Below are positions 28,850 to 51,817 of a stretch of DNA of 64,000 nt, piece after piece. Origin of the DNA: Heptranchias perlo (Eukaryota); NCBI RefSeq assembly GCF_035084215.1, contig NC_090359.1:15562001-15626000 (forward strand), in the 5' to 3' direction. Position 1 is the stretch's first letter. The number at the start of each line of letters is the position of its first letter. Under the pieces are notes generated by a model. It ran no database searches. It worked only from the letters and a program-made list of their open reading frames with translations, and was not told the origin of the DNA. The translations under genes were made by a program, and so were the position numbers.

Positions 28850-29145
28850 TTTTTTTTTTTCTTTTTTTTTCTGGCCCCCCTTTTATAAGAAGGGGGGGGT
28901 GTAGGGTGTGCTTAAGTACTAAAAACCAAATAAAACGAAACCAGGCATCAAATTAAAATTTTATTTTCCTCGTCCAGGATGCACTCCAGCACCTGCGGTG
29001 CCCACCGGTCGCGGAAAGCCTCAAGCGTACCGGCAGACACCGCGTGCTCCATCTCCAGGGCCACCCGGGCGCGGAACAACCCGCGAAAGAGAGGCAGACA
29101 GGCCGAGCGACCGCCCCCACGGACCGCGAGCATCCTGGACCTGGG
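28850..29145 (-). mobile_element. Tx1-clade LINE short 3' end abutting the ZP3 5' UTR
   Basis: Encodes ...RARVALEMEHAVSAGTLEAFRDRWAPQ..ECILDEENKILI*, followed by a 3' hairpin with TATAAAA (28881-28887) and an A-rich tail. Confidence 0.85.
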
Positions 29146-29167
29146 GATATCCAGGATGCACTCCAGT

Positions 29168-31027
29168 TTCGTCTAGTTTTCTGGTGGGTCAGTGGCGGGT
29201 GGACTCCCTGCCGGAGGAGCTCAGGCCTTTCGCCTGGAGTACCACGCACCTCCGGTACCTGGGAGTCTACCTCGGCCCTGCCGAGGAAGCCTGGCCGGCG
29301 AACTGGGAAGAGCTGGAGGCCAAGGTCGCCGCTCGCCTGGCGCGCTGGACAGGACTGCTCCGAGTGTTATCCTACAGGGGTCGAGTGCTGGTCATAAACC
29401 AGCTGGTGGCCGCCATGTTGTGGTACCGGTTGGTCACTTTGACCCCACCCCCCGAGTTTGTCACCAAGATTCAGAGGAAGTTCGTCGACTTCTTCTGGGC
29501 CAAAGGGATGCACTGGGTCGCTGCCGCGGTCCTGAGTCTCCCGCTTAGGGAGGGCGGTCAGGGGCTGGTGTGCGTCCGCACCCAGGTGGCAACTTTCCGC
29601 CTTCGGACGCTGCGGCGATACCTGTACGTTGAGCGTCCTCTTAGATGGCGTGCGCTGGCGACGTATTTTTTCCGCCAGCTGCACGGCCTGAACTACGACA
29701 CGCAGCTCCTGTTCGTCTCGCTGGTGGGCGGCCGCACGTCTTTGCAGGAGCTGCCTGTCTTTTACCAGGATCTGCTCAGGGTCTGGAACATGGTCGCCTC
29801 CGGTCGGAGCTCTCGCCCGTCAGGGGTAGCGGCCGTCCTGCAGGAGCCGCTGCTCGGGAATCCGTTCCTCTGCGATATCGGCTTCGGCCACTCGCGGCTG
29901 TCGGGGCGGAGGGCCGTGGCCGGTCGCGTAACCAGAGTCAGGGACGTCCTGGATGGCGGTGGGTCGGGTTGGTTGGAGCCGTGGGCGCTCGCCGCACGGA
30001 TGTCCTCGTGGCGTGCCGGGGACGCGGCCATCGCCATCCAGGCGTTGAAATCGGCGCTCGGCCCTGACTCCACTCGGGATGTGGAGGCGGCTCAGGCGTG
30101 CGGAGCCAACCCGTCCGACCTGACCCCCGTTCGGACGGAGTTCCTCCTCGGCGCCAAACCCCGGCACCTCCCTCGGGGGGCCGCGCCTCACAACTTGAGC
30201 CGTCTCTCGGAAATTCCCTCCGTGCCGTTTCTCACCGCGCGGAGGGATTTCCTGTACGGGCTGCTCCTGCACACCATCCACTTCCTCGCCCTCGTCTCTC
30301 GGCCGGACACGCCCTGGCGTAACATCCTGCCGTCCGGCGGAGACGGGGGTTCCCAGTGGGGGGCTCTCTACTCAGGGATCCTCCCGTGTTCCATCGGGGA
30401 TCTGGGCTGGAGGGTGGTGCACGGAGCAGTCGCGTGCAACCGGCGGTTACGCCATTTCACGGACACCCAGGCCGCTTGTGATTTCTGCGGCCTGGAGGAG
30501 TCCGTGTTTCATTTGTTCACGGGGTGTGGGAGACTGCAGCCCCGGTTTGATTATTTGAAGGGGCTGCTCCTCAAGTTCTGGCTGCATTTCAGTCCCACGC
30601 TCCTGATCTTTGGCCGCCCGGTGAGGAGGGGGGCGGGCAGGTCGGTGGACGTTCTCGTGGGCCTGCTCCTGGGCCTGTCCAAGGTGGCCATCCACAGGTC
30701 TAGGATGATCGTGGTCCGTGGGGGCGGTCGCTCGGCCTGTCTGCCTCTCTTCAGCGGAATGCTCCGCGCCCGGGTGGCCCTGGAGATGGAGCACGCGGTG
30801 TCTGCCGGTACGCTTGAGGCTTTCCACGACCGGTGGGCACCGCAGGGGCTGGAGTGCATCCTGGACGAGGATAATAAAATTTTTATTTGAACACTTGGTT
30901 TTGGTTTGTTTGGTTTTAGTATTTAAGCACACCCCACACCCCTCTTCTTATAAAAGAGGGGCCTAACAAAATTAAAAAAAAAGGAAAAAAAAAAATCTGA
31001 AAGTGAAAAAAAAAGAAAAAAAAAAAT
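29168..31027 (+). mobile_element. Tx1-clade LINE, 5'-truncated, open ORF2 C-terminus (RT thumb and Zn finger)
   Basis: Encodes LRYLGVYL, LSYRGRVLVINQL, LPLREGGQGL and CDFCGLEESVFHLFTGC, with a stop at 30890, then a hairpin and poly(A). Confidence 0.9.
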
Positions 31028-31457
31028 CAGAAAGTTTCTCTTTGTTTCAATCTCTTGGAATCATAACTTTGAATTATTTGATAATAATTTGATATTTTCA
31101 CTGAAGTGGCTTTTCATAATCTGGTCAAGTTTATTACTTGTTGGTGATTGTGATGTTGAGACAATATTCAAAGCAATCAAGTTGTCTTGAGTGAATTTGC
31201 AAACCACCATTGGTCAGAGAAATGGAAATTCCATCCCATGGATGGTGTGAATCGTCCCCAGTTCTAATATAGAGAATGGGTGTGTCTGAGGATTGGCAGC
31301 ATGGGGGCATCAACTGGGCAAAGCATTGTGGGATGTGTCATTTTTAGTTTTGATTCTCATGAAATGTTGTTTGGTAAAATTCAGGATATTCAGCGAGAAT
31401 GAGAGGCAGTGAAGATTACTGAATGCAATGTCACCCACACAAACATCTCCATTTGTG

Positions 31458-31830
31458 TCAGCTGTGGCTCAGTGGCAGCACTCTCACCTCAGAGTCAGAA
31501 GGTTGTGGGTTCAAGTCATCATCTCGAGACTTGAGCACATAATCTAGGCTGACTAAGGGAGTGCTGTACTGTCGGAGGTGCCGTCTTTTGGATGTGATAT
31601 TAAATCGAGGCCTCATCTGCTCTCTCAGGTGGACGTGAAATATCCCACAGCACTATTTCGAGGAAGAGCAGCGGAGTTCTCCCCAATATCTGGACCAATA
31701 TTTATCCCTCAACGAACATCACTAAAACAGATTATCAGGTCAATATTTCATTGCTGTTTTTGGGTCCTTGCTGGAGGCAAATTGACTGCCGCATTTCTTA
31801 CCTTACAACAGTGACTACACCTCAAAGGTG
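31458..31830 (+). mobile_element. Deu-domain tRNA-derived SINE (SacSINE1-like)
   Basis: A/B-box head TGGCTCAGTGG...GGTTCAAGTC and core GCCGTCTTT.GGATG...AGGTGGACGTGAA. Confidence 0.75.
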
Positions 31831-49470: not shown

Positions 49471-49663
49471 GATATCCTTTATTTTGGGTTGATGACACGA
49501 GGGCAAACCCAGTGTCTCCTAAACGGGTTTATTTAGATATTTCTTTTGCTTTTGATTTTATTTAAGCCCCTTTGGCTGGGAGTAGGTTTAGGATGACAAC
49601 TTTATTTTTAATACAAATCAATAACCAGAGTCAAATAAGAATTTTAATTTTCCCGATCAACTC

Positions 49664-51490
49664 TTTTTTTTTTTCTCTTTTTTTTTTAATTAGGCCCCCC
49701 TTTTATAAGAAGGGGGGGTGTGGGGTGTGCTTAAATACTAAAAACCAAATAAACCAAAACCAAGTGTTCAAATTAAAATTTTATTATCCTCGTCCAGGAT
49801 GCACTCCAGCCCCTGCGGTGCCCACCGGCCGCGGAAAGCCTCGAGCGTACCGGCAGACACCGCGTGCTCCATCTCCAGGGCCACCCGGGCGCGGAGCACT
49901 CCGCGGAAGAGAGGCAGACAGGCCGAGCGACCGCCCCCACGGACCACGATCATCCTAGACCTGTGGATGGCCACCTTGGACAGGCCCAGGAGCAGGCCCA
50001 CGAGAACGTCCACCGACCTGCCCGCCCCCCTCCTCACCGGGCGGCCAAAGATCAGGAGCGTGGGACTAAAGTGCAGCCAGAACTTGAGGAGCAGCCCCTT
50101 CAAATAATGGAACAGGGGCTGCAGTCTCGCACACCCAGTGTGCAGATGGAACACGGACTCCTCCAGGCCGCAGAAATCACAAGCGGCCTGGGTGTCCGTG
50201 AAATGGTGTAACCGCCGGTTGCACGCGACTGCTCCGTGCGCCACCCTCCACCCCAGATCCCCAAAGTAACACGGGAGGACCCCTGTATAGAGAGCCTCCC
50301 AATGGGGACCCCCGTCTCCGCCGGACGGCAGGCTGGCACGCCAGGGCGTGTCCGGCCGAGAGACGAGGGCGAGGAAGTGGATGGTGTGCAGGAGCAGCCC
50401 GTACAGGAAATCCCTCCGCGCGGTGTGAAACGGCACGGAGGGAATTTCCGAGAGACGGCTCAAGTTGTGAGGCGCGGCCCCCCGAGGGAGGTTCCGGGGT
50501 TTGGCGCCGAGGAGGAACTCCGTCCGAACGGGGGTCAGGTCGGACGGGATGGCTCCGCACGCCTGAGCCGCCTCCACATCCCGAGTGGAGTCAGGGCCGA
50601 GCGCCGATTTCAACGCCGGGATGGCGATGGCCGCGTCCCCGGCACGCCACGAGGACATCCGTGCGGCGAGCGCCCACGGCTCCAACCAACCCGACCCACC
50701 GCCATCCAGGACGTCCCTGACTCTGGTCACCCGACCGGCCACGGCCCTCCGCACCGACAGCCGCGAGTGGCCGAAGCCGATATCGCGGAGGAACGGATTC
50801 CCGAGCAGCGGCTCCTGCAGGACGGCCGCTACCCCTGACGGGCGATAGCTCCGACCGGAGGCGACCATGTTCCAGACCCTGAGCAGATCCTGGTAAAAGA
50901 CAGGCAGCTCCCGCAAAGACGTGCGGCCGCCCACCAGCGAGATGAACAGGAGCTGCGTGTCGTAGTTCAGGCCATGCAGCTGGCGGAAAAAATACGTCGC
51001 CAGCGCACGCCATCTAAGAGGACGCTCAACGTACAGGTATCGCCGCAGCGTCCGAAGGTGGAAAGTTGCCACCTGGGTGCGGACGCACACCAGCCCCTGA
51101 CCGCCCTCCCTAAGCGGGAGACTCAGGACCGCGGCAGCGACCCAGTGTATCCCTCTGGCCCAGAAGAAGTCGACGAACTTCCTCTGAATCTTGGCGACAA
51201 ACTCGGGGGGTGGGGTCAAAGTGACCAACCGGTACGACAACATGGCGGCCACCAGCTGGTTTATGACCAGCACTCGACCCCTGTAGGATAACACTCGGAG
51301 CAGTCCTGTCCAGCGCGCCAGGCGAGCGGCGACTTTGACCTCCAGCTCTTCCCAGTTCGCCTGCCAGGCTTCCTCGGCAGGGCCGAGGTAGACTCCCAGG
51401 TACCGGAGGTGCGTGGTACTCCAGGCGAAAGGCCTGAGCTCCTCCGGCAGGGAGTCCACCCGCCACTGACCCACCAGAAAACTAGACGAA
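49664..51490 (-). mobile_element. Tx1-clade LINE, 5'-truncated (mirror of 29168-31027)
   Basis: Open ORF to the stop at 49768, then a hairpin and poly(A). Confidence 0.9.
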
Positions 51491-51512
51491 ACTGGAGTGC
51501 ATCCTGGATATC

Positions 51513-51817
51513 CACAGGTCCAGGATGCTCGCGGTCCGTGGGGGCGGGCGCTCGGCCTGTCTGCCTCTCTTCCGCGGAATGCTCCGCGCCCGGGTGGCCC
51601 TGGAGATGGAGCACGCGGTGTCTGCCGGTACGCTTGAGGCTTTCCACGACCGGTGGGCACTGCAGGGGCTGGACTGCATCCTGGACGAGGAAAATAAAAT
51701 TTTTATTTGATGCCTGGTTTCGTTTTATTTGGTTTTTAGTACTTAAGCACAACCTACACCCACCCCCCTTCTTATAAAAGGGGGGCCTAAAAAACACAAA
51801 AAAAAAGAGAAAAAAAA
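51513..51817 (+). mobile_element. Tx1-clade short 3' end abutting the ZP3 5' UTR
   Basis: TATAAAA at 51773-51779 and A-tail to 51817, with the ZP3 ATG at 51863. Confidence 0.85.

Follow-up and report, generated by a model that had tools for sequence, protein, structure and literature searches.

A Tx1-clade LINE of Heptranchias perlo whose front-end copies cluster in the 5' regions of amplified genes for ZP3, ZP4 and ferritin

The DNA analysed here is a 64,000-nucleotide stretch of the 3.25-Gb genome of Heptranchias perlo (C38:15562001-15626000; C numbers denote contigs and L numbers retrieved loci). This stretch, the window, carries genes for the egg-coat protein ZP3 and for ferritin together with copies of a long interspersed nuclear element (LINE) which, as judged from its protein sequences, is a member of the Tx1L lineage in the Tx1 clade. 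The element probably lives by a cycle in which amplified ZP3, ZP4 and ferritin genes are its preferred targets, entered in their 5' regions, and in which it is transcribed from their promoters, whose activity in oocytes is suggested by the identity of the genes. A preliminary description of the window had proposed that the family targets RNA polymerase II (Pol II) promoters active in the oocyte or germline. The link to ZP3 and ferritin 5' ends proved stronger than it had claimed and extends to ZP4/ZPB-like genes, but general targeting of Pol II promoters appears weak, and DNA resembling ZP3 intron 1 has been entered as well.

Results

Host fragments in the tails of dispersed copies

An exact 27-nt pattern of the 3' end has 434 matches in the genome, the first 100 of which all lie on C1-C9. 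Ninety-seven of these were fetched, three were dropped as duplicates or tandem partners, and 94 independent dispersed sites were kept. Many tails of these copies hold fragments of 15-370 nt between runs of A. Tail fragments from ZP3, ZP4 or ferritin were found at 39 of the 94 sites (41 raw matches, less L153, a neighbouring copy, and L059, an array head), as against 1 of 339 control fragments. Their sources are the promoter, exon 1 and intron 1 of ZP3, the promoter of a ZP4/ZPB-like gene with a trefoil exon, and DNA upstream of ferritin. There were 32 tails bounded by a target duplication that contained any fragment; 26 map to the ZP3, ZP4 or ferritin references, and the other six hold the element itself, a diverged ZP3-promoter-like piece, or A-rich or tandem-repeat sequence. 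Among these bounded tails no fragment was traced to any other gene, and the unmapped ones included no rRNA, tRNA or other abundant RNA.

The ZP4 family was discovered by tracing an unmapped tail fragment, and another such fragment turned out to be an older ZP3 promoter, so that the tail pattern survived two open tests. A third was traced just to the element's own arrays, and for one array-head piece no source was located outside the arrays and two tails. The junctions occupy about 25 different positions over ~1.5 kb, intron 1 included, with no narrow fixed window; recurrent ones lie at -33 and +3 in ZP3, at about -30 in ZP4 and at -213 in ferritin, relative to TATA-like boxes. Junctions upstream of the TATA box are antisense and those at or below it, including the intron, are sense, with L047 and L139 as exceptions. 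Some tails stack two to three successive sites (L147, L053, L063, L060, L168 and L070), and at least seven tail junctions are matched by an insertion in place at the native locus. Since the tail-bearing copies span 80% to 98% identity, the link to these genes must be old.

Front-end copies and insertions in place

A pattern for the start of open reading frame 1 (ORF1) gave 100 matches, of which 94, mostly assigned by coordinates, lie in the ZP3/ferritin/ZP4 clusters and none on C1-C19. They are distributed over C38 (66), C43:4.3-4.6 Mb (13), C725 and C1048 (13), C49 (two, at ZP sites) and C1417 (one, unplaced), and five are dispersed. The genome-wide distribution of the family is not random. 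When the first 30 ORF1 loci were read, 25 were in the C38 clusters and five were dispersed. In the clusters, ten follow the ZP3 promoter and exon 1 start in sense, ten follow ferritin promoter DNA read outward, two follow a ZP4-promoter piece and three the tail of another copy; the dispersed five have no host piece, and four of them are cut within the 5' untranslated region (UTR). Complete copies either lie in ZP3 exon 1 or have 40-230 bp of host promoter at their start. Host promoter DNA that contains CCAAT boxes recurs between tandem units, in stretches of 80-230 bp with variable ends. At ZP3-intron-like sites, a type headed by ZP4 sequence makes up tandem arrays of 7.2 kb.

At the native ZP3 promoter, CAGGTG is followed by TATAAAA|GG, and the short copy of the window lies at the bar. 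In other ZP3 paralogues there are nested copies, antisense copies at a distance of 45-60 bp upstream, and additional A-only insertions at the same base; repeated A-only insertions at one nucleotide occur in L093/L094/L101, L297 and the L218 group. The ZP4 and ferritin promoters likewise show insertions in place, and dozens of distinct insertions fall between about -250 and +1300 relative to the genes of the three families. In 78 ZP loci there was one non-Tx1 insert between aligned segments; L267 and L279 had unaligned gaps. A dispersed ZP3-intron-like family has at least nine distinct junctions in 24 loci, in both orientations (counted by eye), where ~0.03 would be expected at 0.7 copies per Mb, a density based on 2356 first-look candidates, and ~0.6 if the 95% ceiling given by the empty control is used. 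Two public runs of unrecorded tissue yielded contigs in which members of the ZP3 family are spliced; none of the public runs is annotated as ovary or as RNA.

Head-to-tail arrays of ~7.2 kb, several near contig ends, lie in a ZP3-intron-like fragment without exon 1 at C13:73.36-73.38 Mb, C32:1.78-1.80 Mb, C37:31.96-31.98 Mb, C446, C1626, C16:31 kb and C49:28.32 Mb.

Cut sites of dispersed copies

A target duplication of at least 10 nt, mostly 11-15 bp, is present at 58 of the 94 dispersed sites. The target-site logo that the preliminary description had proposed to build from such duplications is nearly unselective, giving a B|AA preference alone and no sequence target, and a sequence-specific nuclease is thereby ruled out. 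Compared with 20 hand-picked control regions on C1-C9, whose windows are not independent, CpG-island-like windows were more frequent at dispersed sites (9/149 vs 7/500; odds ratio 4.5, p 0.004). Such a flank occurs at 9 of the 94 sites; by eye four to five are promoters and the others tandem repeats or unclear. Dispersed sites lay within other repeats in 10 of 58 cases as against 400 of 980 control points, which is a lean to unique, CpG-richer DNA, and CCAAT (2.9x, p 0.03) and CAGGTG (2.7x, p 0.002) were enriched. These modest enrichments amount to a mild lean to regulatory DNA and not to promoter specificity. Many dispersed copies lie within CR1 or plain intergenic DNA.

Independent dispersed copies recurrently share identical 5' ends, mostly T-initial, at positions 6659 (six sites), 6528 (five), 6641 (three) and 6228 (three) of the reference copy described below; truncated sources mobilised in trans, RNA cleavage or hairpins may account for them. 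In L005 (positions 1026-1101), L022 and L245, on C25, C6 and C20, copies with differing truncation points have identical first 76 nt, which equal the 3' end of the 5' external spacer of pre-rRNA and stop 2 nt before 18S. This piece is apparently, from its sequence, a template switch onto an rRNA processing fragment; an Rfam search of the piece itself gave nothing real. Such chimeras fit a nucleus rich in rRNA precursors and are not proof of it. L035 (C30:36.83 Mb) is a near-complete dispersed copy between direct duplications of ~200 bp. In L042 (C14:36.19 Mb) at least 11 truncated copies, in tandem and inverted order, form a satellite-like stack whose tails hold fragments of ferritin and ZP3. 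The copy in L037 (C10:18.53 Mb) lies within a long 23-27-bp satellite.

Structure and classification of the element

A complete copy of 6.8 kb was found in the C43 tandem array, ~300 bp upstream of ferritin exon 1. Its ORF1 encodes a gag-like protein of 678 aa with a CCHC knuckle (zf-CCHC, E 0.0017, just under the cut-off). The ORF2 product has an APE endonuclease (PF03372) and a reverse transcriptase (RT, PF00078), both above the cut-off, and a weak C-terminal zf-RVT match (E 6e-4). ORF2 is 50% identical over 1300 aa to Xenopus Tx1L (YTX2_XENLA, P0013), and 62% in the RT region. In an RT-based tree of 20 rows, comprising 18 of the 120 listed homologues plus a long-branch outgroup, the element falls into one clade with Tx1L and turtle and sturgeon proteins (support 100/100), which bears out the earlier assignment to Tx1. 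Poly(A), 5' truncation and target duplication are present as marks of target-primed reverse transcription.

The 3' end forms a C/G hairpin whose loop contains TATAAA and which is conserved in nearly all copies; the hairpin of the window copy has one compensatory pair. We considered whether the element might donate a TATA box, as TATAAAAGG in its 3' end resembles the broken ZP3 box. This idea was rejected: the sequence sits in the conserved hairpin loop and is thus more likely an RNA signal.

Copies within the window

The window was searched by BLAST with one full-length genomic copy as query, and reference positions refer to that copy. Ten pieces were found, all inside 28850-51816: 28850-29148(-), 29181-30994(+), 36468-36642(+), 36933-37012(-), 42887-43059(-), 43055-43463(+), 43815-44053(+), 49101-49377(+), 49664-51477(-) and 51510-51816(+). 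The remaining 41 kb, which hold the tRNA genes, gave zero matches, and so did 200 kb of arbitrarily chosen control genome DNA. Each copy is either in ferritin upstream DNA or no more than ~900 bp from the start of a ZP3 or ferritin gene. The claims that all copies stand beside ZP3 or ferritin 5' ends and that the tRNA cluster is free of them were therefore correct. The 5' breakpoints vary (reference positions 5019, 6528, 6659, 6606, 6486, 6424, 6594 and 6421), as do the 3'-end identities (75-97%), which indicates ~8-9 separate insertion events in the window rather than duplication of a single insertion.

The copy list of the preliminary description holds as to location, but 28850-31027 and 49664-51817 are each a pair of copies, head to head. 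They represent a single event, as had been supposed for the two ZP3 loci, since they were duplicated along with an 11-kb segment present twice, inverted, in the window (20070-30994 vs 60534-49664, 97%). The repeated independent insertions it proposed agree with the number of events above, but several were multiplied with the ZP3-plus-ferritin cassette: the 36468 copy is common to 30/30 paralogous ferritin cassettes, the 36933 copy to 29/30, and the TATA-box copy is present in 21/30 ZP3 paralogues. These are single old events and not new insertions.

The first pair consists of a short 5'-truncated copy at 28850..29148 (-), sense to ZP3, which lies in the TATA box with its poly(A) 42 bp before the ATG, and a long 5'-truncated copy at 29181..31027 (+) with the 3' part of ORF2, the 3' UTR hairpin and an A tail with a repeated target fragment. 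The 32-nt bridge between them (29149..29180) consists of an older copy's 5'-end remnant and a 16-nt spacer. Empty versions of the TATA-box site exist in L075, L097 and L102. The duplicates of the long and the TATA-box copy are at 49664..51477 (-) and 51510..51817 (+). Upstream of ferritin A, an old short copy at an AATCTG site (36468..36680, +) is directed away from the gene and has a ZP3-promoter fragment in its tail, and an internal element fragment of 80 bp follows at 36933..37012 (-). At 42260..42398 (+) a hairpin-and-tail remnant, whose 42260-42330 part was seen in the sequence and is below BLAST length, precedes a 69-bp antisense ZP3-upstream fragment, an arrangement that recurs on C43 (L325). 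Further on are a head-to-head pair with an additional degenerate 3' remnant (42887..43610; 42887-43059 minus, 43055-43463 plus), a young short copy (43815..44055, +) ~60 bp ahead of exon 1 of ferritin C, which is damaged, and an old copy of 80% identity (49101..49450, +) inside ferritin upstream DNA (48633-49091).

The bridge at 28850-31027

The tail of the short copy lies at the ZP3 TATA box; that of the long copy lies at the ferritin AATCTG (-213) site, beyond which come 800 bp of DNA from upstream of ferritin. The two copies are joined at their 5' ends, with 2 nt of microhomology to the long copy; an initial value of 4 nt was dropped. The 16-nt spacer recurs next to the antisense copies that lie upstream of ZP3 in other paralogues. 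The structure likely arose from two simultaneous insertions which fused the ZP3 and ferritin loci. Inversion plus deletion is a possible alternative origin that would need breakpoints exactly at both copy ends. A reciprocal crossover at 42330 was also considered and ruled out, as merely a 69-bp fragment lies there.

Host genes and their amplification

The genes beside the copies are ZP3, which has a ZP-N domain, and ferritin. Exon 1 of ZP3 copy A (28407..28808, -) has a premature stop at codon 25, and that of copy B (51863..52264, +) at codon 29, with more exons past 54400. Such a stop is found in 4/21 TATA-inserted and 0/9 intact paralogues, a difference that is not significant. Far-upstream ferritin DNA, now fused via the element pair to ZP3, is at 31024..31829 (-) and is 87% identical to the empty ferritin locus L034. 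Ferritin gene A has four exons (33420..36172, -), a TATA box near 36250 and CCAAT boxes at 36310-36435; gene B is at 39004..42068 (-), and ferritin C (44117..46151, +), with a damaged start of exon 1, is likely a pseudogene. The amplified ferritin genes have short leaders (36172-36260 and 42068-42250) in which no iron-responsive hairpin was evident by eye, and are possibly of yolk or oocyte type.

The cluster of the window has at least 40 occurrences of the cassette at 96-100% identity. Large recent amplifications comprise this cassette on C38:9.6-17.7 Mb, C725 and C1048, a ferritin tandem cluster at C43:4.3-4.7 Mb, and at least 21 copies of ZP4/ZPB-like genes at C23:2.6-29.6 Mb. A 54-bp tandem repeat at 12290-13010 is found in the same cassette just upstream of native ZP3 promoters. 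Genes for tRNA Asp, Asn, Glu and Leu lie in duplicated blocks at 128-21040 and 59600-64000.

Discussion

Proposed life cycle and alternatives

We propose that the region and not a sequence would be chosen, probably via accessible chromatin or factors bound to the promoters of those genes that are most active in the oocyte; in zebrafish follicles, zp3 and fth1 rank with the most abundant transcripts of the fish oocyte (PMC1488847). Copies directed away from the promoter would be read by its sense or divergent transcription, which would yield RNA flanked on either side by host sequence. Through the 5' host piece of this RNA, the cDNA could pair with a paralogous promoter, which would favour complete integration and tandem arrays there, and insertions elsewhere would mostly be truncated dead ends. 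Multicopy targets may tolerate the damage through redundancy, and simultaneous insertions at two such promoters could join and rearrange the cluster, as they may have done at 28850-31027. More tentatively, and with some doubt, the element can be pictured as a specialist of the oocyte's strongest protein-coding promoters that is tethered by oocyte factors to the regulatory regions of ZP3, ZP4 and ferritin, swaps captured host promoters as its 5' end, and via paired insertions builds and reshuffles the ZP3-ferritin cluster on which it depends.

Several observations weigh against the proposed cycle. About 94% of front-end copies are in clusters, so tails would map there even if the element used its own promoter, and one 5' UTR type does contain CCAAT-like motifs. 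Roughly 90% of the dispersed sites have no CpG-island-like flank, and CAGCTG, GC-box, ETS and TATA motifs were not enriched at dispersed sites (seven, then five motifs were tried). None of the 94 dispersed copies is inside a ZP or ferritin gene. Target specificity in Tx1 has been defined by one target class in >20% of flanks (PMC4494074); under this rule the dispersed sample is not target-specific, and only ORF1-bearing copies reach that share. The hot ZP3-intron-like family has no exon 1 within 4.8 kb upstream in L290 and is thus not clearly a promoter. No RNA contig in the public runs joined a host piece to the element 5' UTR, and several upstream copies in the window (36933, 43815 and 49101) are oriented toward ferritin. 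The clusters are segmentally amplified, so that counts of complete copies are not independent events; this inflation by amplification and selection is the main weakness, along with the fact that neither de novo insertions nor the starts of transcripts were seen.

One alternative is that there is no real targeting, with near-random insertion under a mild open-chromatin bias and accumulation in clusters by tolerance, duplication, purging of long dispersed copies, and expression only near oocyte promoters. The weak cut-site logo, the large share of non-promoter dispersed sites, the at least 40-fold amplification of a nearly identical cassette, in which one event is seen 30 times, and the depletion of fly promoter insertions after selection (PMC10018349) all agree with this explanation. 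We nevertheless regard it as unlikely: CR1-type repeats make up about half of the control DNA, yet the targets contain one such insert vs more than 20 Tx1 or A-only events, in-place insertions occur in both orientations, and tails with two to three successive ZP or ferritin sites need repeated landings in <0.1% of the genome.

Less probable still is a general search for any germline-active Pol II promoter, with later removal by selection of insertions at single-copy promoters. The ~4-fold enrichment of CpG-island-like DNA and ~3-fold enrichment of CCAAT, together with clear promoter-like sites (L051, L181, L192 and L162, and by eye L016 and L022), speak in its favour, but the enrichment at the three gene families is larger by one to two orders, no duplication-bounded tail fragment came from any other gene, and CR1 and plain intergenic DNA received many dispersed copies. 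We give very little credence to the view that the tail fragments are short abundant nuclear RNAs of ZP and ferritin loci, captured by template jumping, and not flanks of source copies. The enzyme does jump, as the pre-rRNA spacer piece at the 5' end of three copies attests, and fragment orientation agrees with sense and divergent transcription; however, the tail junctions found as real insertions at native loci, the variable ends of fragments with a common start and the lack of rRNA, tRNA or other abundant RNA among unmapped bounded fragments argue against it, and it leaves the location of ORF1-bearing copies unexplained.

Comparison with known systems

The safe sites of target-specific LINEs are RNA genes, microsatellites, telomeres and other transposons. 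The niche proposed here, amplified protein-coding genes abundant in oocytes, would give safety and germline expression together. Our literature searches, with supplements and Repbase reports outside their scope, found no report of such an element at egg-coat or ferritin promoters; the family may be named in Repbase. As the tails would record the locations of source copies over successive generations, target choice and source turnover could be read from one assembly. The system also opens to testing the questions of how a LINE finds its region when its nuclease is nearly unselective, and of whether such elements drive the amplification of egg-coat genes.

R2 uses a sequence-specific nuclease at a single rDNA site; unlike it, the present element captured several unrelated host promoters in turn. 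The dependence on the target's transcription that we propose would be shared with R2 and SINEU/Tx1-Mar, and co-transcribed target sequence is said to strengthen targeted integration (PMC4494074). Xenopus Tx1L is similar in its ORF1 zinc knuckle and the APE-RT-zinc finger order of ORF2. Target preference is common in the Tx1 clade, where Tx1L targets the Tx1D transposon, Keno U2 genes, and Kibi and Koshi microsatellites (PMC4494074). Unlike in these, the targets here are 5' regions of protein-coding genes, entered at many positions that have no sequence in common, and the truncated copies are for the most part dispersed.

Dictyostelium TRE5-A, also a non-LTR element of APE-RT-zinc finger type, enters the DNA upstream of genes and is oriented opposite to them; the gene next to it enhances its promoter, and its ORF1 binds TFIIIB subunits (PMC5911963). 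The two elements are alike in position and orientation bias, with upstream sources antisense, but TRE5-A uses Pol III tRNA genes within a range of 44-54 bp (PMC5911963) and the present element Pol II genes over ~1.5 kb. The P element, Tf1, the Drosophila I-element and LTR elements prefer active promoters; for the I-element and LTR elements the preferred position is ~150 bp before the start (PMC10018349). The bias of the latter is ~2-fold and that of the others general (PMC10018349). The concentration here, with nearly all front-end copies in a few gene families, is far stronger than the ~2-fold bias of the I-element. The bridge at 28850-31027, finally, resembles the synchronous L1 insertion bridges of tumours in having two 5'-truncated inverted copies with joined 5' ends and poly(A)s at different loci (10.1101/2024.08.27.596794). 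Unlike those (10.1101/2024.08.27.596794), it belongs to the germline, became fixed and was later amplified within a gene cluster, and would be an inherited germline case of the paired-insertion rearrangement known from tumours.

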